This document shows positions 48,372-61,619 of a stretch of 64,000 nucleotides of DNA, one piece after another. Each line of letters starts with the position of its first letter. The stretch's first letter is position 1. The DNA comes from a virus (taxonomy: Duplodnaviria > Caudoviricetes). The position numbers and the translations under genes were made by a program. The DNA lies in the IMG/VR virus record IMGVR_UViG_3300020049_016424, positions 118,834 to 182,833 of that record; one strand, 5' to 3'. Under the pieces are notes generated by a model that did not search any database, was not told the origin of the DNA, and was given only the letters and a program-made list of their open reading frames with translations.

Positions 48372-49397
48372 TCACTTCTCTCGTACGTGTGCGGTGTCTT
48401 CGGCGGCGCGCGGGGTTTCCCAGCCGCGGTTGAGCTCGTACTGCGACTTCCAGCCGGGGGGAAGGCGTTCGCCCCAGCCCATGTGCCAGGCGCTGAGGAT
48501 TTCGTCGCTGGTGCAACCGTGTTTGCCGGCAGCCTGGCAGAACACGAAGATCTCGCCGTTGTCGCGCAGCTTGATGACGGCGCGGGCGCTCTTGTGGTCG
48601 CGCAGCGGGCAGCGGGCGATCCATTCGCCGACCTGGTTGCCGTTCGGCTCGTACTTCACGCCGACGCGGCGGAGCTTCTGGAAGAAGTCGATGACGTGCT
48701 CGGGCCACTGGGTGCCGCCTGACCAACTGGCAGCGGCCTTCGCGCGCGCTCGCGGCGGGTTCTCGTAGTAGGGCCGCATGTCGATGCCGTGCGCGGTGAG
48801 GATGAGATCTCCGCGGTCGGTGAAATGCGCAGGCGGCACGCGGTGCTCGAGGATCGTGACCGGGAAGGGGTTGTTGATGTCCTTGAGGTGGCAAGCGCCG
48901 GGCATGCGCATGACGCGCGCGGGGTCACAGACCTGGGGATCTCCGCCGAACTCGAGCGCCAGCACGTCCATCTGCAGGCGCCACGTTTCGGGGTGCGGCT
49001 GCGTCTGCCCGCAGATGGCCTGCCAGTACCAGTGCTCGCCGTTCTTCGTCTGGATACGCATGTCGGGCGGGTAGATTTCGGCGGGCCGCTTCGACGGCCC
49101 TCCGTCGAAATCGAGGCAGTACGCGCGGAAGACCTTCATGTCCTCGTTGCGGCGCGTCGACTTCGGAACGCCCGGGGAGTTCACGCTGACGAAGGGCTGG
49201 AAGTGCTGGTGGTGGAGCTGCGGCAGCCGTGCGAGGTATTCGTCACGGCGGAGGAACATCTGCCAGCGCAGGCGGGGCGCGGAGGGATCTGCGTTGAGCC
49301 AGAGGAACACGGAGCCGCGGTCTTCCGGGTCGAGGAAGCGGAGAAACTCCGCAGCCATGTCTCGATCGATGGGGTATCTGCAGGGGGAGTGTTTCAT
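48372..49397 (-). CDS. RepB'-type (AEP) DNA primase with a C-terminal Zn-binding domain
   Basis: YCLDFD, GEHWYW, GGDPQVCDPARVMRMPG..H.K; RCPLRDH...FCQAAG..GC. Confidence 0.8.
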   Translation of the reverse strand: MKHSPCRYPIDRDMAAEFLRFLDPEDRGSVFLWLNADPSAPRLRWQMFLRRDEYLARLPQLHHQHFQPFVSVNSPGVPKSTRRNEDMKVFRAYCLDFDGGPSKRPAEIYPPDMRIQTKNGEHWYWQAICGQTQPHPETWRLQMDVLALEFGGDPQVCDPARVMRMPGACHLKDINNPFPVTILEHRVPPAHFTDRGDLILTAHGIDMRPYYENPPRARAKAAASWSGGTQWPEHVIDFFQKLRRVGVKYEPNGNQVGEWIARCPLRDHKSARAVIKLRDNGEIFVFCQAAGKHGCTSDEILSAWHMGWGERLPPGWKSQYELNRGWETPRAAEDTAHVREK

Positions 49398-49529
49398 GGA
49401 GGTAGAGGGGTATCGAGTAGGGTAACCGAAGGGCCCAGGGGGGCGCTACCGGAGACGTAAACCCTGGGATTTACGCGGGAAAGCGGGTGAGGGGGTTCCA
49501 ACGAGGCGTGCGCGAGGTACGATTTGCAG

Positions 49530-50177
49530 ATGGATGAAAATCTCCGCGCACGCTTGTGCGACTTTCGGTCGAAGCAGAAACCTGAGGGCGAGGACGGCGC
49601 TGTCGAGCGCGTTCGCGGCAAAATGGTGATCCGCGACATCCGCGCCGTCACCGGCGTGACCCTCCACCAAACCGCATGCTGGTACGGCCTCGCCAAATAC
49701 CAGCTCGCAGCCGCGAAGGGAGACGAAGAGCTCGCTCGGCACACCCGAGCGCTCGAAATCAACGCGCACATGACCGCGATGCGGCACGGGAAGTGCGTCA
49801 TCACGTACGACCCGCTCGCCTACGTCTGGCACGGCCATGGTTGGAATCCGACCGATGTGGGGCTCGAGCACGAAGGCCTGTACGACGCGGACGGCAACCC
49901 GCTCAAGAAGCCCGGCGACGTGAAGATCGATGAAATCATCGAAGCCGGGCGCGCTGGTATGGCGTTTCTCTGTGAGACGCTTCCGCACTTGCAGTGGGTG
50001 CATGCTCACCGACAAGCCATGCGCGTAGGTAAAGCCGCCAAGAGCGCAGACCCTGGCAAGAAGATCTTCCAGGAAGTCGGCATGTGGGCGTGCAAGAAGT
50101 ACGGCCTCTCGGCGCAGCCAGAGCGTCGCATCGGGTCAGGCCTCGCGCTGCCCCCCGCATGGTACAGTGAGGGTTGA
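49530..50177 (+). CDS. N-acetylmuramoyl-L-alanine amidase (Amidase_2) endolysin
   Basis: GVTLHQTA, NAH, WHGHGWN..VGLEHEG, HAHRQ...KSADPG; TACGAT-N6-ATG. Confidence 0.75.
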   Translation: MDENLRARLCDFRSKQKPEGEDGAVERVRGKMVIRDIRAVTGVTLHQTACWYGLAKYQLAAAKGDEELARHTRALEINAHMTAMRHGKCVITYDPLAYVWHGHGWNPTDVGLEHEGLYDADGNPLKKPGDVKIDEIIEAGRAGMAFLCETLPHLQWVHAHRQAMRVGKAAKSADPGKKIFQEVGMWACKKYGLSAQPERRIGSGLALPPAWYSEG

Positions 50178-50504
50178 GCGGGCGTACCCTTTTGCGGCGC
50201 TATATGTGCGGGCGTGCATCGCGTCGAAGACTATAAGAACAGCTGGAAGCGACAGGGCTTTGTGCTGTGCGTACCGGTACGTAAGGCTGCTAGGCCCACT
50301 GTACAGCCAAGGGAGTCGTCGCGGGCTCTCTCTCCTGTGAGGAGTTCGCGCTGTGTATTGGCAGAACATCGGCCAGTACCCCTCTCGAGCGTGGCGATAC
50401 TGCAGGAGTGTGCGGGCTTCTAAGAAGTATGTCCCGCCTCGCACACGGCGTTGTTCTCCTTCTATGTCGTACCACTCCCACGGCCCCGCGAACGTATGCT
50501 TCAT
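50136..50504 (-). CDS. MKH..W family paralog
   Basis: MKHTFAGPW...EARTLLQYRHAR. Confidence 0.7.
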   Translation of the reverse strand: MKHTFAGPWEWYDIEGEQRRVRGGTYFLEARTLLQYRHAREGYWPMFCQYTARTPHRRESPRRLPWLYSGPSSLTYRYAQHKALSLPAVLIVFDAMHARTYSAAKGYARSTLTVPCGGQREA

Positions 50505-50900
50505 CGAAACCTCTTCTTCTTCCGGCGTCCCCGCGGATCAAACTCGGGTTTGTGGCGCAGGAGCGCGGCGCAGCTTAGTGCGTACAGGTAAGCCCGGGTC
50601 TCCGCGCTATAAAACATGGTAGTCACCGTGTGGTACGTCTGCGCGTAGCCGTAGCGGTCCCAGTAGCGATCTCTGAGGCTGGACGGGCGGCTTCCCAGCT
50701 CCCGGACGCGCGGGTTGGAACACAGAGGGCGTGAAGCATACAGTTCCCCCCCGATGCAGTTCAGGCTCGAAGTGATCCCGAGCCTCCCGCCGCACAGGAA
50801 GTATTCGGATCTCTGCGGGGTAAATATGCGCGTAGCTAATGCGACGCTGCTGCTCGCCAGGACGGCGCCCCGTCCAGCCGGATACGAACGTGTGCTTCAT
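50501..50900 (-). pseudogene. MKH..W paralog, frameshifted (probably at the G7 run 50746-50752)
   Basis: The MKHTFVSGW frame stops at 50607. The +1 frame ends LRHKPEFDPRGRRKKKRFR and overlaps the next ATG. Confidence 0.6.
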
Positions 50901-51012
50901 CAAAACACCTGCTTTTCGGCAAGAGCGTGCGCGACGGCTGCGCTGCGACGTCTGAGGAACGTATAGAGTATTTCCGGCAGGGGAGCGTCTTTGTGAATCG
51001 CGTATGCTTCAT
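50900..51012 (-). pseudogene. Internally deleted MKH..W remnant
   Basis: ATG AAG CAT ACG is fused out of frame to the family-like C-terminus YAIHKDAPLPEILY...KQVF. Confidence 0.55.
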
Positions 51013-51035
51013 CTAAACCTCTTCTTCTTCCGGCG

Positions 51036-51395
51036 TCACCGCGGATCGAACTTGGGTTCGGAGCGCAGGACCTTTCGTGCGTCCCATGCGGAGCCGTCTG
51101 CAACAACGCGGTATCGCAAGATGCGCGCTTCCGCCTCCGTCTCGGAGATACCCCGCCAATTGCTATACAACACGTACAGTTCCGGAAGGCTGACAGCGCG
51201 CAGAATCCGCTGTCGGGGGCTGGGCTGTTTGCGCGGCCCCGGACTTCCCGGTTGAACTCGGAGGACCGGAACATGTTGCGCATGGCGATATGCGGGGTAG
51301 TGACGCGCTTCGCAGAGCCCTGGTCGTGCCCGAAAGACCCGTTGGTTTACCTCGCCAGTTGTCCAGGCCCACGGCCCTACGAAAGCGTGCTTCAT
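51036..51395 (-). CDS. MKH..W family paralog
   Basis: MKHAFVGPW...EARHYPAYRHAQ. Confidence 0.7.
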   Translation of the reverse strand: MKHAFVGPWAWTTGEVNQRVFRARPGLCEARHYPAYRHAQHVPVLRVQPGSPGPRKQPSPRQRILRAVSLPELYVLYSNWRGISETEAEARILRYRVVADGSAWDARKVLRSEPKFDPR

Positions 51396-51409
51396 CGGAA
51401 TACCTCTCT

Positions 51410-51787
51410 TCAGCGGAAGTACGCCCGCTGCTTGAACACATTCTCGTACGCACACTGCTGAAACCGCACAATGGCTGCGTAGGCATCCTTGAAGGAGCAG
51501 TCTTTGTGCATGGCAAAGCGAATGTGCAGCGTATCGGACGCAGCCCGCAGATACGGCATGAGCGCGGAGCTGTCTGATTTTCGCGCAAGGTGTTTGCGCT
51601 TGCGGAAGAAGGGCTGGCCCGCCGCGCAGTGTCCGTGCGTCGGAAGATCCCGAGCATGCCTAAACTGATTGTACTCTCGTGTCTCATGTATTCCTTGCGA
51701 AGTCGCACGCGTACGGCTGCCCAGCATGCGCTGCTCCCGTTCTCGAGTCAGGCACATCTTCCAAGGGCCTACCAAGACATGCTTCAT
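51410..51787 (-). CDS. MKH..W family paralog
   Basis: MKHVLVGPW...ETREYNQFRHAR. Confidence 0.7.
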   Translation of the reverse strand: MKHVLVGPWKMCLTREREQRMLGSRTRATSQGIHETREYNQFRHARDLPTHGHCAAGQPFFRKRKHLARKSDSSALMPYLRAASDTLHIRFAMHKDCSFKDAYAAIVRFQQCAYENVFKQRAYFR

Positions 51788-52134
51788 CGAAAGACTCCTG
51801 GGTGAACCCGGGTGTGCTCTACCGCGATCCTGCGCAACTCGTTGAGGCTGTCGAGGAGCTCTATTGCGGACTTGTGCTGCTTTTGCGCAAGGCGCGCATG
51901 GATAGAGCATAGCGCGATGTTCATGCGCGGGATTCGTCGTGGAGCCAGCTTTCTACAGCAGACCCTGGAGGCGCCGAGGCTCCCCGCGTATACCGTCTCC
52001 GGAGTCCAGCGCGCATGCCGAGCGTACGGGTATCTCCGTGTTTCCCACATGTTTATCGCGGACATGTGGACGTATCGCTGCTCCGTTTGCTGGGAAGGCG
52101 TAGGACACCACGGCCCTACAAAGGTGTGTTTCAT
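51784..52134 (-). CDS. MKH..W family paralog
   Basis: MKHTFVGPW...ETRRYPYARHAR. Confidence 0.7.
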   Translation of the reverse strand: MKHTFVGPWCPTPSQQTEQRYVHMSAINMWETRRYPYARHARWTPETVYAGSLGASRVCCRKLAPRRIPRMNIALCSIHARLAQKQHKSAIELLDSLNELRRIAVEHTRVHPGVFR

Positions 52135-52502
52135 CGGTGCTCATTGTGCCGGAGGAGGTGAGAGAAGTCCCACGCAGCGTCACGCCCCTTTTTACGGGCT
52201 ACGATCAAGTAAGCGTACGTCGTTGCGAAAGGGATATCCTGAAGCTCGGACCACCGGACCGCGAGCGGCCGCACGTCTTCCGAGTAGTCGTGTTGTGCGA
52301 GCCCATGGGGGGTGTACGCGCATCTTTGCAGGGGTAAGACCGGCGCGAGAGCAACGCAACGCAGTTCGGAGTAGCTACGCACCGCCCGCGGGCCGCGGGT
52401 CATTTGTCGTGCCTCTCCTTGTCTCCGTGCGGAGTCAAGGCGGCGCCACTCAAGACCGTCCAAGACGGTCTGTCCCCAAGAACCCACAAAGGCATGTTTC
52501 AT
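52131..52502 (-). CDS. MKH..W family paralog
   Basis: MKHAFVGSW. Confidence 0.7.
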   Translation of the reverse strand: MKHAFVGSWGQTVLDGLEWRRLDSARRQGEARQMTRGPRAVRSYSELRCVALAPVLPLQRCAYTPHGLAQHDYSEDVRPLAVRWSELQDIPFATTYAYLIVARKKGRDAAWDFSHLLRHNEHR

Positions 52503-52849
52503 GGCAGCCTCCTGCAGGCGCGGTACGCGTTGTCTTTAGCCCGCATGATGCGGGTGTACGCGGTTTGGTAGGAGATTCCTGTCCGTGCGGCCCAAACGGC
52601 CGCAAGGGGGGCTGAAGTTGGTACTCTTGCCGCGCCGCGTAGGTAGTTTGCTGTGTAGCCCTTTCGCCGTAGGTGGGGCTGTACACAGTCGGTAAAGTAC
52701 TGTATCCGTGCGTATCCTCGTTCTGCGCCAGAGCCGCACTCCATGTGTCGAACCTCGCCAGGGCCGCGCTGTGTATCTCGACGGAGGCTGCGGAGCTCAA
52801 TCCCGTCCACTGAATACTGCCTCCAGGGGCCTGCAAATGCGTGCTTCAT
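52499..52849 (-). CDS. MKH..W family paralog
   Basis: MKHAFAGPW. Confidence 0.7.
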   Translation of the reverse strand: MKHAFAGPWRQYSVDGIELRSLRRDTQRGPGEVRHMECGSGAERGYARIQYFTDCVQPHLRRKGYTANYLRGAARVPTSAPLAAVWAARTGISYQTAYTRIMRAKDNAYRACRRLP

Positions 52850-53220
52850 GGCACCACGTATGTGCGGCGCAGGTCCCCTGCCCGCGCGGCGTCATGCGCG
52901 TGGTCGTCTGCGAGCTCCCGCCCCATTTCGAGCGTCTCACACGGCCCGGCTTCCTGGCACAGCAACCGCAGGGCAAGTCGCCGGGCAATGCCGTAGTCGT
53001 CGGGGAAGCAAAGCTGTCGCACGTAGCGGCGTCTCTGCTTCGGGATGCTATTCCAAGAAGCGGCATCTCCATTTCCGTCTGTGATTTGTAGGACGCTGTC
53101 TCGGGCAGTGCGGATAGGGGACAACCGCCGCACTTGGATTCGGGACGTTCCGATGAGGACGTCACGCACTTCGCAGCCGTACATGCGCGGCACCCATGCG
53201 GTGACCATCGTGTGCTTCAT
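52846..53220 (-). CDS. MKH..W family paralog
   Basis: MKHTMVTAW...QVRRLSPIRTAR. Confidence 0.7.
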   Translation of the reverse strand: MKHTMVTAWVPRMYGCEVRDVLIGTSRIQVRRLSPIRTARDSVLQITDGNGDAASWNSIPKQRRRYVRQLCFPDDYGIARRLALRLLCQEAGPCETLEMGRELADDHAHDAARAGDLRRTYVVP

Positions 53221-53591
53221 GGGGGCACCTTGGCGTAGGGGTTTGTGAGATAGGGACGGGCCTTTCGGGCATTGTTGCGAGCTCGGACATGCGCCTCCGC
53301 GGCACGGTGATGATTCCACGGGTCGGGGAAGCCCTGGAGGGCCGCTAATCGCAACCACAATGCACGGTTGGTACTCGTAAGATATGGACGGAGGCGCGGT
53401 GGCCGCTTTCGAGACACCGTGTCGTGCGTTCGAAAGCAGGCTTCCTGTACGGTTACACAGGGAGACATCTGTTCGCGCGCGGCGCGTGTTTGCTCCAGAA
53501 CACGGCTCTCGTGCATGCGCGGATGCGTAAGTAGCCGGATCTCAATGTGCGCCGTGATCAGCTGCCAGCGTGCGGTGAACGCGTGCTTCAC
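53217..53591 (-). CDS. MKH..W family paralog (GTG start)
   Basis: MKHAFTARW...ESRVLEQTRAAR. Confidence 0.7.
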   Translation of the reverse strand: MKHAFTARWQLITAHIEIRLLTHPRMHESRVLEQTRAAREQMSPCVTVQEACFRTHDTVSRKRPPRLRPYLTSTNRALWLRLAALQGFPDPWNHHRAAEAHVRARNNARKARPYLTNPYAKVPP

Positions 53592-53974
53592 GGCTGCACC
53601 TTGGCATAGGGGTCTTTGAGTCGCGGCGCCAGCAACCACGCAAGCGCTGCAGCTTTGCGTATCCGCGTATCTGGCAGGTACAGGCCGCTGCGCGAGGGAT
53701 CCTTTACGTGCCGCACGTGCAGCAGATAGGCCCCTCCGTCGTACACCATGGGGACACGCGATGGCGGACGTAGTTTCCGCGTGTCCCGCGGCAGCGCCGT
53801 AGCCACCACTGTGCTCACACTGACGCGGGTATAGGTTGCGCGAGCATACCTATTGATGTGAAGGCTGCGCTGTTCGATCTGAGCAAGCGTAGCGCCGCGG
53901 GTTGGGAACCTCGGCACACGCACTTCGTGTAAAAGATCTTGGGTATGCCACGCGCTCACGAACACGTGCTTCAT
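53588..53974 (-). CDS. MKH..W family paralog
   Basis: MKHVFVSAW...EQRSLHINRYAR. Confidence 0.7.
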   Translation of the reverse strand: MKHVFVSAWHTQDLLHEVRVPRFPTRGATLAQIEQRSLHINRYARATYTRVSVSTVVATALPRDTRKLRPPSRVPMVYDGGAYLLHVRHVKDPSRSGLYLPDTRIRKAAALAWLLAPRLKDPYAKVQP

Positions 53975-54339
53975 CGTTTTCTCTTGGCCGGAACACGGAT
54001 GGGAGTGTAGAAGACGTAGGCTGCGTCGTCTGCGTGAGCTCGAGCTCGAGTCCGCGCGTCTTCGTACGCAGATATATGGTAGATGTGCCCGGCACGCCTC
54101 CAGAGACTGTGCGCGCACTCTAAATCTTCGAATAGTAGTGTGGTGGGGCGTATTCGAAGAGGGGGAGGCGCGCTGCGCGGGAACCCCGGGCCCGGGTTCC
54201 CGGCACGAGTGTCGTGCGTAGGCGTCGTTCGAGCGTAGCGAATTGTCGCTAACCGCCGCTCTTCCCAGCAGGTTCCTACGTCTCGAACCCAGTAGGCTGC
54301 GCTCTCGAAGACCCAAGGCCCCGTAAGTGCGTGTTTCAT
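53971..54339 (-). CDS. MKH..W family paralog
   Basis: MKHALTGPW...EERRLATIRYAR. Confidence 0.7.
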   Translation of the reverse strand: MKHALTGPWVFESAAYWVRDVGTCWEERRLATIRYARTTPTHDTRAGNPGPGFPRSAPPPLRIRPTTLLFEDLECAHSLWRRAGHIYHISAYEDARTRARAHADDAAYVFYTPIRVPAKRKR

Positions 54340-54683
54340 AGTGGCGTTCCTTTGCGGAAGAGCTCAGGTGCGCGTCTCGCCAGCACGGCCGCGCGATTAC
54401 GAGCGTGGTCATACGCCCGGACGAGATGCGGAGCACGTGCGTGCCAGTTGACCCGTGCGTCATAGTCTCGGGAAGGGCAAGGGAAGTGTGTGAACATGCG
54501 GCGGTGTATGTATGTCCGCGCGGACGTCTCCGGTACATATGGCCCGAACCAACTTCGACTCTTAGGCAGGTCTCGTGACGTACGCATAGGCGGCAACACG
54601 CGTTCTTCCCAGCCGCCAGGAATGGTGCGCCCCCAGAGGCTGCTGTTCACGGCGTACCACGGGCTCACAAATGCGTGCTTCAT
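54336..54683 (-). CDS. MKH..W family paralog (first of the main array)
   Basis: GGAGG RBS; MKHAFVSPW...EERVLPPMRTSR. Confidence 0.7.
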   Translation of the reverse strand: MKHAFVSPWYAVNSSLWGRTIPGGWEERVLPPMRTSRDLPKSRSWFGPYVPETSARTYIHRRMFTHFPCPSRDYDARVNWHARAPHLVRAYDHARNRAAVLARRAPELFRKGTPL

Positions 54684-54696
54684 GCCAGCCTCCAAG

Positions 54697-54734
54697 AAAA
54701 AGAAAACGCCCCCTGGAGTTGTCCAGGGGGCGTT
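54697..54734 (-). terminator. Strong intrinsic terminator
   Basis: 13-bp perfect stem aacgccccctgga/tccagggggcgtt with a T tract on the - strand. Confidence 0.85.
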
Positions 54735-54755
54735 CGGACTCCGCGGACTGTGAAG

Positions 54756-55181
54756 TCAGGCCGCGGCGCTGTCTGCCATCCCGGCGACCGGCGCTGCGGC
54801 CTTGCGCTGCTCTGCGGCACGCGCCGTGATCAGGCTCGAGGAGCAGCCATGCATGCCCGCGAGGGCTGCCGTGAGCTGCTTGACGGTGCAGGCCGGGAAC
54901 GCTGCCGCGAGGACCGCGAGCTGGCCAGGAAGGTCGACGCCCTCGAGCTGCGCCTTGCGGCCCTTCGGGTGCTTCGGGATGTCGAAGCCGAGAACCTTCG
55001 CCTGGACCTTGATGGCCTGGATGGCGCCGGGGCGCGTCACCTTGGCCCCGTCGACGACTTCGTCGATGGTCGGCAGCTTGCGGTTGTCGAAGCAGAAGCG
55101 CTGCACGAAACGCGCAGCGTTGTTGTGGCGCTTGGGGTTGCCGGCGACGGCAGTGTGGGTAGTGGCGGCGGTTTCAGACAT
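54756..55181 (-). CDS. Basic Ala/Lys-rich protein, possibly DNA-binding
   Basis: MSETAATT...LPTIDEVVDGAKVTRPGA; strong codon bias; has its own terminator. Confidence 0.6.
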   Translation of the reverse strand: MSETAATTHTAVAGNPKRHNNAARFVQRFCFDNRKLPTIDEVVDGAKVTRPGAIQAIKVQAKVLGFDIPKHPKGRKAQLEGVDLPGQLAVLAAAFPACTVKQLTAALAGMHGCSSSLITARAAEQRKAAAPVAGMADSAAA

Positions 55182-55216
55182 GGTTGGTGTAGTCTCCGGC
55201 CACGGAAATATCATGC

Positions 55217-55516
55217 TTACGGTACGGGTGCAAGAGGCTCTGTGGGGCCTCGGAGTGCTGCCCCGAGTCCTTCGAGCAACGCGATGCTGAGGGTCGTCGG
55301 GGACGGGCGCTTGGTGATGCGAACGCCTGCAACCACGGCGCGGGCAAAGGGGTAGCCGAACACTTCGAACACGCCGTGCACTCTTCCCATGAGAATCTGT
55401 CCCCCCGGGTCCTCCCAAATCTGCAACTCCGCGAGCTCGATCCATGGAGAGTCTTTGGGAAGAGCGTCGCGTAGAAGGAGCAGTAGTCGCGCTGGTTGTA
55501 TCCCCGGAGGCGTCAT
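55217..55516 (-). CDS. E[VI]FGYP family paralog
   Basis: RVHGVFEVFGYPF. Confidence 0.55.
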   Translation of the reverse strand: MTPPGIQPARLLLLLRDALPKDSPWIELAELQIWEDPGGQILMGRVHGVFEVFGYPFARAVVAGVRITKRPSPTTLSIALLEGLGAALRGPTEPLAPVP

Positions 55517-55718
55517 CGGGTGTATGGGGGACGACACGACTAGCCTGACCTGGATTGGAGATAAGTGGGGTAGCCCCACGTTTCGTATTGTGTGAGCGTG
55601 ATCTCACCGCCCTTGCACAAGGCGTCGATGAAGACGCCCCAAGATTCACGCGCTGCGCTGCGGTCTTGGGCAGGAGACGGGTACTGGGTACGGAAGAGCC
55701 GTTCGGCTTCTTGGAAGT

Positions 55719-55991
55719 TCATTTTTTGAGCACCATCTTTCGGGGAGAGGGGACGGGAAGAGGAATATGGCGACGGCGGGCATGTTTCCGTGGCACGAAG
55801 CTGCCGAGGTACGGGAGTGGTTCGACGCGTGTGATAATCGTGCCGCTGTGTTCGCGAAAACTGCGGCGAATGTCCCCGCCTCCGTACCCCGCGTATCCGA
55901 GTCGCATGTCGGCGTCACGGTACACCGCTGGGGAGTGTAGGCTTGTCGTGTAGATGCAGCGCTGCCACGCGTCTACGAAGGTGTGCTTCAT
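55719..55991 (-). CDS. MKH..W family outlier
   Basis: MKHTFVDAW. Confidence 0.6.
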   Translation of the reverse strand: MKHTFVDAWQRCIYTTSLHSPAVYRDADMRLGYAGYGGGDIRRSFREHSGTIITRVEPLPYLGSFVPRKHARRRHIPLPVPSPRKMVLKK

Positions 55992-56299
55992 CGCGCAGCC
56001 TTTCGTCTGTTGGCCTTGAACACGCGCAGCCGTTCCCAGATGGCACGATCGTTCTCGATGCGAGCAAACACCGCGTCGCCCTTCTTCCATGGGCGCAAAT
56101 ACTCGGTTACGTCTTCGGGCGTGGACAGTTTGTAGCACCGCGTTTGTTCCCCGTTGGGGTATTTGCCGTATCCGTGTATGTCGGAGATGGGCAGCTTTCC
56201 CCAGACGCGCACGCGCACTGTGCCTCTATTTTCTTTCATACCTGGGGACGCCCACGACATGGTGTACCGTTTCCACGACTGCACGAACGCATGCTTCAC
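55988..56299 (-). CDS. MKH..W family outlier (GTG start)
   Basis: MKHAFVQSW; AGGAGG RBS. Confidence 0.6.
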   Translation of the reverse strand: MKHAFVQSWKRYTMSWASPGMKENRGTVRVRVWGKLPISDIHGYGKYPNGEQTRCYKLSTPEDVTEYLRPWKKGDAVFARIENDRAIWERLRVFKANRRKAAR

Positions 56300-61415: not shown

Positions 61416-61619
61416 TCATGGCGGGGCAGGCTTCTTTCTCGTAGGCGTCCTGCGGTTCCAGCTGGCGCAGGACCCCGCATGGTTTTCGTCCTCGGACGTT
61501 CGGGGAACCACGCCGCAGTACGAGATAGCCGAGCATCCCACGCTTACGTAGGGGCCGTTGACATAGACGCGCGCTTTGGCGCCACAGAAGGGGCACGGTT
61601 TGAGTTTCGGTGGCTTCAT
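61416..61619 (-). CDS. Lar-family restriction-alleviation-like Zn protein
   Basis: LKPCPFCG...VGC....CG...SWNRR. Confidence 0.65.
   Translation of the reverse strand: MKPPKLKPCPFCGAKARVYVNGPYVSVGCSAISYCGVVPRTSEDENHAGSCASWNRRTPTRKKPAPP

Follow-up and report, generated by a model that had tools for sequence, protein, structure and literature searches.

What holds together a row of small phage genes that begin almost alike and then go their separate ways, and what could a virus gain from so many of them? The question is raised by the window analysed here, a stretch of 64,000 nucleotides that forms the final 64 kb of a 182,833-bp viral record rated complete by CheckV (IMG/VR record IMGVR_UViG_3300020049_016424, from an uncultured jumbo phage of the Caudoviricetes). 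Between window positions 50136 and 56299, a preliminary description of this DNA had seen a tandem array of 14 genes whose products start with MKH, plus one remnant, and had proposed that they form a library of effectors with a constant docking motif and variable surfaces.

The array turns out to be one cluster of a lineage-specific, birth-and-death multigene family. A census of the whole genome counts 81 tagged genes, all on the minus strand, that occupy 20.9 kb, or 11.4% of the 182.8-kb genome. What they share is a tag of ten N-terminal residues, M-[K/M/I]-H-[V/A/T]-F-V-x-[G/P]-W. When close strains are compared, the tag is under purifying selection, and the bodies behind it are near-neutral, with a ratio of nonsynonymous to synonymous substitution rates (omega) of about 0.8-1.3, yet their frames stay open and their composition is biased.

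The array and its tag

The genes of the window were located by a regular-expression scan of all six frames for the motif [M/V]KHxxxxxW. Exactly 14 open reading frames (ORFs) match M or V, then K-H-x-x-x-x-x-W; all are on the minus strand and within 50136-56299, which bears out the array as first described. Twelve of them form the main array, head to tail from 54683 down to 50136, eleven encoding 115-128 amino acids (aa) and one 97 aa. Two further tagged genes, at 55719-56299, close a chain of small orphan genes. The features are listed below in the direction of transcription; names beginning with L designate metagenome contigs, and genes 2, 4, 5, 7 and 8 rest on the scan and on a leave-one-out profile.

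55988..56299, minus strand: MKH-tagged gene, 103 aa, GTG start, GGAGG Shine-Dalgarno site; body unrelated to the main array (leave-one-out body score -0.3 bits, shuffle level)
55719..55991, minus strand: MKH-tagged gene, 90 aa, ATGA overlap with the upstream gene; body unrelated to the main array (body score 1.2 bits, shuffle level)
54704..54735, minus strand: terminator-like hairpin, 14-bp stem and T-run, about 20 nt upstream of the first main-array start
54336..54683, minus strand: main-array gene 1, 115 aa; 34 nt and 21 aa differences in the allele of other strains, ORF intact
53971..54339, minus strand: main-array gene 2, 122 aa
53588..53974, minus strand: main-array gene 3, 128 aa; divergent allele (21 nt) in L001 and L003
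53217..53591, minus strand: main-array gene 4, 124 aa, GTG start
52846..53220, minus strand: main-array gene 5, 124 aa
52499..52849, minus strand: main-array gene 6, 116 aa; C-terminal part helix-turn-helix-like by eye, unsupported by Pfam
52131..52502, minus strand: main-array gene 7, 123 aa
51784..52134, minus strand: main-array gene 8, 116 aa
51410..51787, minus strand: main-array gene 9, 125 aa; its AlphaFold2 model has a beta-meander, a disordered linker and three helices
51036..51395, minus strand: main-array gene 10, 119 aa; another MKH cassette, of 75 aa, in its place in L001, L003 and L005
51001..51070, minus strand: duplicated gene junction, copy 1, with C-terminal ...FDPR, a Lys/Arg run and ATGAAGCATACG; 90% identical to copy 2
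50836..51012, minus strand: remnant, 58-aa ORF (MKHT...), an MKH start fused to a deleted body, running out of frame into the next gene
50607..50900, minus strand: main-array gene 11, 97 aa here; frameshifted copy (G7 run at 50746-50752), intact at 132-133 aa in L001-L005 and L012
50493..50562, minus strand: duplicated gene junction, copy 2; 90% identical to copy 1
50136..50504, minus strand: main-array gene 12, 122 aa; ORF intact in L001, L002 and L004, whose allele has 68 nt (18%) and 39 aa differences

The similarity does not stop at the tag. With residues 1-10 removed, each of the 12 main-array genes scores 10.5-42 bits against the leave-one-out profile, where the shuffle maximum is 9.2; the preliminary description had made its family depend on such an alignment past the first nine residues, and for the main array the alignment exists. 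The bodies of the two upstream genes remain at shuffle level against the same profile, so that their membership, also claimed, holds for the tag common to both but not for what follows it. The size first given, about 116-130 codons, likewise suits eleven genes, whereas the twelfth is the frameshifted copy of a gene that is longer elsewhere. In the main array, columns M1, K2, H3, W9, R20 and R37 are invariant and E35 is conserved in at least 90% of members; the E-x-R and E-x-R...R-x-A-R motifs read from it earlier are confirmed. Nine of the 13 junctions in the window are 4-nt ATGA or GTGA overlaps, as had been said of most of them, and sites resembling GGAGG or AGAGG lie 6-8 nt before the array starts. 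The reported deficit in G+C content is present and modest (0.60-0.62 in the block, 0.647 in the genome). At third codon positions the array genes have 0.60-0.73, against 0.80-0.92 in core genes, a low value that fits weak constraint at the codon level. A non-coding RNA or tRNA array was also considered and rejected: Rfam, at gathering thresholds, and ARAGORN are blank within the window.

Taken as the whole family, the array first described is real but is only part of it. A profile of the 14 window proteins, run against the same genome, finds the other members at genome positions 73-80, 84-92, 94-97 and 169-175 kb, the window array being one of about six, with lengths from 5 genes to the 30 of array A. 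The tagged proteins are small, 48-128 aa. Over the genome, 61 of 82 junctions are 4-nt overlaps, and 80 of the 81 starts read xTGA: the start codon carries the stop of the previous gene. The consensus lines of the body classes repeat one plan (tag, x-R, E-x-R, [A/G]-R), and each class carries its own conserved motifs and lengths. Between arrays, only A1 with A2 and B1 with B2 recognise each other, all other hhalign comparisons giving at most 15%; by profile comparison, the main-array bodies, class D, match no other class of the same genome.

The tag itself is strikingly regular. Histidine stands at position 3 in all 81 genes, and the N-terminal length of the tag is constant throughout; residue 2 is K in 65 genes, M in 10, I in 5 and Q in 1, never Pro and never a small residue; Phe5 is found in 64 genes, and Trp at position 9 or 10 in 78. 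The codons are far less regular: AAG 38 times and AAA 27, CAC 59 and CAT 22, TTC 38 and TTT 26, with all four Val codons in use. Since every tag codon varies synonymously, the tag is conserved as a peptide, and not as a DNA or RNA element. The same variation rules out a DNA repeat in place of a protein, and extends to 81 genes the argument, made earlier on the window, that selection acts on the protein. The pattern at residue 2 is partly explained by the xTGA junction, which forces that codon to begin with A; the junction leaves the conservation of His3, Phe5 and Trp9 unexplained. A similar start is seen outside the family: just downstream of the array, a RepB-primase-like protein of 341 aa (window 48372-49397, minus strand) begins MKHSPC..., its first nine nucleotides being those of the tag, with neither Phe5 nor Trp9. 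This may be chance, or a captured junction.

Translation, selection and turnover

Bodies that vary so freely raise the question of whether they are translated. Strict Shine-Dalgarno motifs precede 51% of the starts and 8.4% of internal control positions, a six-fold enrichment, and these sites sit in the 3' end of the preceding gene. Compared with translations of shuffled DNA, the bodies, tag excluded, are enriched in Tyr (z = +23), Glu (+11), Phe (+10), Arg (+9.7) and Trp (+5), and depleted in Pro (z = -14), Ser (-9) and Gly (-7); stops amount to 0% where shuffled DNA would give 2.9% (z = -14). We estimate that in random sequence of array composition a 120-codon frame would be open by chance about 2% of the time. 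Among the 229 single-nucleotide polymorphisms (SNPs) between strains, about 9.8 would be expected to create a stop; none does so in any real allele (P = 5e-5). On this sequence evidence, the MKH genes appear to be real translated genes. Relative to the core proteome of the phage, the tagged proteins have 3.4x the Trp, 2.5x the His, 2.2x the Arg and 1.9x the Tyr, and binding hot spots are typically rich in Trp, Arg and Tyr; the tagged proteins' median isoelectric point (pI) is 10.7, and Arg makes up 14.7% of residues. The gene overlaps, taken alone, would suggest that the array proteins are produced stoichiometrically.

The variation itself comes from close strains: look-ups of exact proteins led to 18 contigs from independent metagenomes, 96.6-100% identical to this genome. 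The window array holds 183 SNPs, against 0-1 in the 1,360 codons of the flanking primase genes. Its divergence is patchy, blocks that differ by 10-20% abutting unchanged blocks, and its substitution spectrum is ordinary: 156 transitions and 86 transversions, with 73 of 242 changes starting from A, a share similar to those of G, C and T. It is thus natural to conclude that array alleles are exchanged by recombination; mutagenesis by a diversity-generating retroelement is rejected on this substitution spectrum, in which the adenine bias is absent. The stretch between the two MKH blocks, window 55200-55700, carries no MKH gene and is strain-variable too: 500 bp hold 15-17 SNPs, and the genes called there are not the same in all strains, since L006 (identical to the window here) has one of 69 aa and the variant strains L008-L010 have one of 106 aa.

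The contrast between tag and body emerges from where the changes fall. In the window array (D), the three codon positions receive SNPs about equally (65/58/60), with an omega of about 0.8; by this codon-position measure, the MKH frame is indistinguishable from the other frames. The MKH genes of arrays B and C have 9 synonymous and 37 nonsynonymous changes, positions 14/21/11 and omega 1.3. In the same strains, the adjacent DNA polymerase gene, used as a control, has 22 synonymous and 10 nonsynonymous changes, positions 5/4/23 and omega 0.14; all MKH genes together (pooled positions 79/79/71) differ from it with a Fisher p of 1.4e-5. Within the MKH genes, nonsynonymous and synonymous changes stand at 6:6 in tag codons 1-10 and at 155:58 in the bodies, so that the tag holds 6 of 161 nonsynonymous changes where 17.7 would be expected, a three-fold deficit (p = 0.0008). 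A constant N-terminal motif on variable bodies, selected as protein, is therefore what the strains display, as had been proposed. The further proposal, that the bodies are specificity surfaces under positive selection, is not shown by the comparison: an omega of about 1 fits relaxed constraint equally well. Even so, the frames remain open: alleles that differ in up to 18% of their bases and 39 of 122 residues have identical length, and the sole indel between intact alleles is of 3 nt.

Whole copies come and go. The 97-aa gene 11 is the same gene as one found intact, at 132-133 aa, in six other contigs, the frameshift lying at the G7 run; the G7 form is present in this genome, L006 and L007, and the in-frame form in other strains. 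A sequencing error can be dismissed, as two independent samples both have the frameshifted form; the run could provide slippage-prone on/off variation. The 119-aa gene 10 is swapped for an unrelated 75-aa MKH gene in three strains, and the 70-bp junction duplicated at 90% identity lies beside the 58-aa remnant. In other arrays, single members have lost their start codon, or changed His3 to Arg, in some strains. The family evolves by birth and death at conserved junctions, its copies turning over through recombination. The gene-accordion behaviour anticipated by the preliminary description is thus real: one junction has been duplicated, one gene reduced by deletion to a remnant, one copy frameshifted, and one cassette replaced between strains. 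Some strains also have, in arrays B and C, single ORFs of 186-197 aa (L202:1535-2095, L199:11847-12440) where this genome has two units, or a unit and a gap, which suggests fusions or read-through variants.

Relatives and predicted structure

The family was said at the outset to be unrecognised, and it remains so in every library tried, whether of sequences or of structures. No match better than an E-value of about 0.05 came from Pfam, PHROGs, NCBIfam or PADLOC (in PHROGs, nothing below E = 0.08 for any of the 14 window members), and none from the PDB searched by sequence. Megablast of deposited phages returned no relatives, nor did a search of IMG/VR through the primase-helicase; the nearest deposited phages, Salmonella phage Arash and Vibrio phages of about 187 kb including D69 (about 31% identity in the beta subunit of RNA polymerase), do not have the tag. 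An exhaustive hidden Markov model (HMM) search of 1.84 billion representatives recovered only this phage lineage, contig L015 and one spurious eukaryotic thrombospondin-repeat protein. L015, a 1.2-kb metagenome contig, has two genes matched by the HMM and in all four MKH genes with 4-nt overlaps; His3 is kept and the class D motifs persist. L015 represents a second, more distant lineage carrying the family. Scanning for the tag pattern gave 60 single matches and no array in IMG/VR, and at least 120 single matches in metagenome contigs, with no array among the matches listed; these are single chance matches.

The spurious protein deserves a word. The class D profile matched 11 thrombospondin type-1 repeats (TSRs) of this single eukaryotic protein (E = 1e-4); the match covers no more than the W...E-x-R stretch, where the repeats have a GPW...E-x-R-type motif as class D does, and TSRs are among the weak structural matches found by Foldseek. 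A TSR is framed by six conserved cysteines and carries a Trp/Arg ladder (WxxW / RxR); the MKH proteins do not have such cysteines, and the structural scores are not significant. The likeness is treated as motif convergence, and homology to these repeats was rejected.

Structures predicted by AlphaFold2 suggest that the proteins are built as a tag, a mini beta-meander and a class-specific helical tail. For a class D member, modelled with 17 paralogs and alleles, the model has strands at 17-22, 33-38 and 51-56 (predicted local distance difference test, pLDDT, 67-82), then a disordered Pro/Arg linker and three helices at 78-120 (pLDDT 93-95), with a mean pLDDT of 75. A class B member, modelled with 21 paralogs, has the same plan and a mean pLDDT of 84. 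In each of the two, the tag contributes a bridge at residue 6, and an N-terminal strand or bridge leads into the three-strand meander and then the helices: the check for a shared fold, suggested with the preliminary description, returned the same layout in the two classes.

Comparison of these models with known structures yields only weak likenesses. The N-terminal 46-58 residues or so align weakly to single propeller blades, with Z 3.6 for class B (root-mean-square deviation, rmsd, 2.4; 46 residues aligned) and Z 3.9 for class D (rmsd 2.2; 46 aligned), and the same DDB1 and APC1 blades are matched, weakly, by both. With VIA-align, the class D helices approach MatP (Z 4.6, rmsd 2.8, 48 aligned) and ribbon-helix-helix antitoxins (Z 4.0-4.5), scores below the reliability range of the tool. 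Wider searches gave a best E of 0.66 in the PDB and 0.12 among the viral structures of BFVD with Foldseek, a maximum Z of 4.6 (class D) and 3.6 (class B) with VIA-align, and nothing above chance in the ESM atlas, by shape or by features. The helix-turn-helix models of Pfam match one of 15 C-terminal modules, marginally (Sigma70_r4_2, E = 0.046); since not even a marginal match of this type is found in the others, no DNA-binding family is assigned.

What the arrays may be for

The genes around the arrays bear on their use. In the window, the array shares its orientation with a Lar-like restriction-alleviation gene, with the chained orphan genes and with those for primase and primase-helicase; downstream of it come an Amidase_2 gene, the RepB-primase-like gene and a DUF927 primase-helicase.

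61416-61619, minus strand: Lar-like restriction-alleviation gene (PF14354, E = 4e-8), at the head of the orphan small-gene chain that leads into the MKH genes
49524-50177, plus strand: Amidase_2 gene (N-acetylmuramoyl-L-alanine amidase-like), convergent with the array, its 3' end overlapping the last MKH gene by 42 nt

Elsewhere in the genome, 11 nt separate the end of the DNA polymerase gene from the start of array C; the terminase is encoded on the opposite strand. Array A is flanked by genes for a DUF2201_N putative metallopeptidase and a DUF2201 vWA-like protein (L013:13932-14501 and L013:6186-7253; genome 79931-80794 and 72185-73252), parts that Pfam models as domains of one protein type. 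Around it are an AAA_5 (MoxR-like) ATPase gene upstream (L014:2519-3781) and, downstream, a Cys-rich ORF and an RVT_1 gene (L013:4673-5716), the latter a reverse transcriptase gene at genome 70672-71715, about 100 kb from the window array. This DUF2201/AAA_5/RVT_1 module is candidate machinery for the tagged proteins. In some strains the polymerase gene beside array C contains an insertion of about 0.93 kb (L199:4453-5386, at genome 98003/98004; also L201 and L203) that splits it into 828, 184 and 376 aa; the inserted 184-aa ORF has no Pfam match, and the insertion may be a mobile intervening element.

The reading that we prefer, with a probability of roughly 0.35, is that the arrays encode an early, co-translated library of small basic binders with one N-terminal handle, for host takeover or counter-defence. 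The tag would serve as the common handle: it would open the fold as strand one, leave its N-terminus exposed and be read by one shared partner; the bodies would be interchangeable binding modules for nucleic acid or host proteins. The proteins would be made in the infected cell alongside the products of early and replication genes, and would act there in takeover or counter-defence, while copies would be gained and lost by unequal recombination at the conserved junctions. We favour intracellular action because of the gene order and because the models place the tag within the fold. The effector library of the preliminary description keeps its constant tag, its variable bodies and its accordion turnover, and positive selection on the bodies may or may not belong to it. 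Several observations count against this choice. Relaxed constraint is equally expected to bring omega near 1, so that diversifying selection is not demonstrated; membership in a DNA- or RNA-binding family is unsupported, with a helix-turn-helix match in one module of 15 and all structural matches below Z = 5; early timing is read from gene order only; a strong terminator-like hairpin stands directly upstream of the main array; and an extreme N-terminal tag on small basic bodies suits a cargo of the virion at least as well. As tandem, small, fast-diverging paralogs that turn over by recombination in conflict, the arrays resemble polyimmunity and polymorphic-toxin cassette loci, reportedly treated by Zhang et al. 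in 2012; those loci are bacterial, their constant part is not an N-terminal decapeptide, and in the MKH family no toxin or immunity family was detected.

The virion cargo is the main rival, possible in our view at odds well short of even. Here the tag would be a particle-targeting sequence like the capsid targeting sequence (CTS) of phage T4, and the basic proteins would be loaded in the head and ejected with the DNA, as anti-defence agents or just as basic filler. The prohead protease of T4 cuts the tag at Leu/Ile-x-Glu; in the MKH family, no Glu-based site is conserved directly after the tag across classes, E-x-R at residues 17-19 occurring in classes C and D only, although the rule of this phage's protease may differ. 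The internal proteins of T-even phages (IPI, IPII, IPIII and Alt) are a highly diverse set that shares only the conserved CTS, an extreme N-terminal tag on small basic proteins as in the MKH family; their loci are polymorphic between related phages, and their members counter host defences, or are thought to do so (PMC3012670). The parallels are these: a tag of about ten residues exactly at Met1 of small basic proteins, body classes that cannot be aligned with each other and tolerate almost any change, dispensable individual copies, and cassettes exchanged between strains. Nevertheless, the MKH proteins match no phage family in PHROGs, and no sequence relation to the T4 proteins was found; in the models the tag belongs to the fold and would not be a detachable propeptide; 81 genes are far above any known CTS set, which numbers a handful; and the MKH genes are co-oriented and contiguous with DNA polymerase, primase and Lar-like genes of replication or early type, opposite to the terminase.

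If amount rather than specificity were selected, the arrays would be a dosage device for generic nucleic-acid-coating proteins, in which only the tag, as fold nucleus, the open frame and a basic, aromatic composition matter, and the copies drift. Omega near 1 and flat codon positions, together with open frames and strongly constrained composition, are what such drift would leave, and the high pI and arginine content are suited to coating. Large arrays are known: those of the jumbo phages G and 121Q, of more than 30 genes, were interpreted as tandem duplication (Hua et al. 2017, PMC5646251), and like the MKH arrays they line up paralogs by the tens in a phage genome of at least 180 kb. The MKH family differs from other jumbo-phage arrays in tag, bodies, lineage and the much smaller size of its units, and here the selection on tag and body was measured. 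We hold the dosage reading unlikely, since distinct classes have motifs and lengths of their own, the class D motifs persist in the distant lineage, and whole cassettes are exchanged between strains and not merely lost; the divergent blocks beside identical flanks moreover suggest recombination of alleles maintained in the population.

Three further readings are improbable in increasing degree. M-x-H with a free N-terminus is the amino-terminal Cu/Ni-binding (ATCUN) motif, here on Arg-rich proteins, and a metal site would be compatible with the other models. It would account for a histidine at exactly position 3 in all 81 genes and in those of L015, for an N-terminal length that never varies, and for a residue 2 limited to K, M, I or Q, as a small residue there triggers removal of the initiator Met. 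The xTGA junction also constrains residue 2, however, a metal site needs none of the conserved Phe5, Val6 and Trp9, and free Cu(II) is scarce in the cytoplasm. Proteins described with the motif (H2N-X-X-His) include serum albumin, histatins and protamine P2, the last Arg-rich like the MKH proteins (PMC7701195); the likeness of the fixed N-terminus and its His3 is at sequence level only. We would give even less credence to its extension, in which 81 binders rich in Arg, Trp and Tyr, each with a redox-active ATCUN metal at its tip, form a combinatorial metallo-protein library, for example of site-directed cleavers of nucleic acid or protein, or of metal sponges, which the MoxR AAA+/vWA/metallopeptidase genes embedded in sister arrays might service. 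It is very improbable that the 45-residue N-terminal meander is one blade, and that neighbouring products co-assemble into propeller-like rings that show their helical tails. The N-terminal halves of both models do match single beta-propeller blades almost exclusively, among them the DDB1 and APC1 blades common to the two, and coupled translation would provide adjacent products jointly; against it, the Z of 3.9 at most falls in the range that any four-strand meander may reach, arrays of 5 to 30 genes give no fixed ring size, and copies are freely lost or replaced between strains. Hardly credible, finally, is a translated spacer, a relay of frames kept open only for the passage of ribosomes down the operon, so as to avoid polarity, with functionless products. 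Near-neutral bodies with strong stop avoidance and the 61 overlaps in 82 junctions would suit it; a tag kept as peptide amid free synonymous change, a strongly non-random composition, confident fold predictions with class-specific motifs, and a frameshifted copy and a remnant tolerated within the chain would not.

Large tandem arrays in jumbo phages (PMC5646251) and the tag-plus-diverse-body sets of T-even phages (PMC3012670) were already known; what is new is the family itself, with its tag, its scale and the selection contrast measured for it. A virus under strong genome-economy pressure gives one ninth of its DNA to 81 mini-proteins of which selection holds only the first ten residues, the open frames and the composition. 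It is an unusually clean natural case of an address with interchangeable cargo, with the contrast in selection measured inside one operon. If instead the bodies are true specificity surfaces, an arms race would have shaped the arrays into a library of minimal binders ready for use. Identifying the reader of the tag, be it a component of the particle, the AAA+/vWA/peptidase system of the phage, a host factor or a metal ion, would reveal a new way for large phages to organise or deliver small proteins in great number; it would also yield a portable handle of ten residues, and explain part of the dark matter of jumbo phages.

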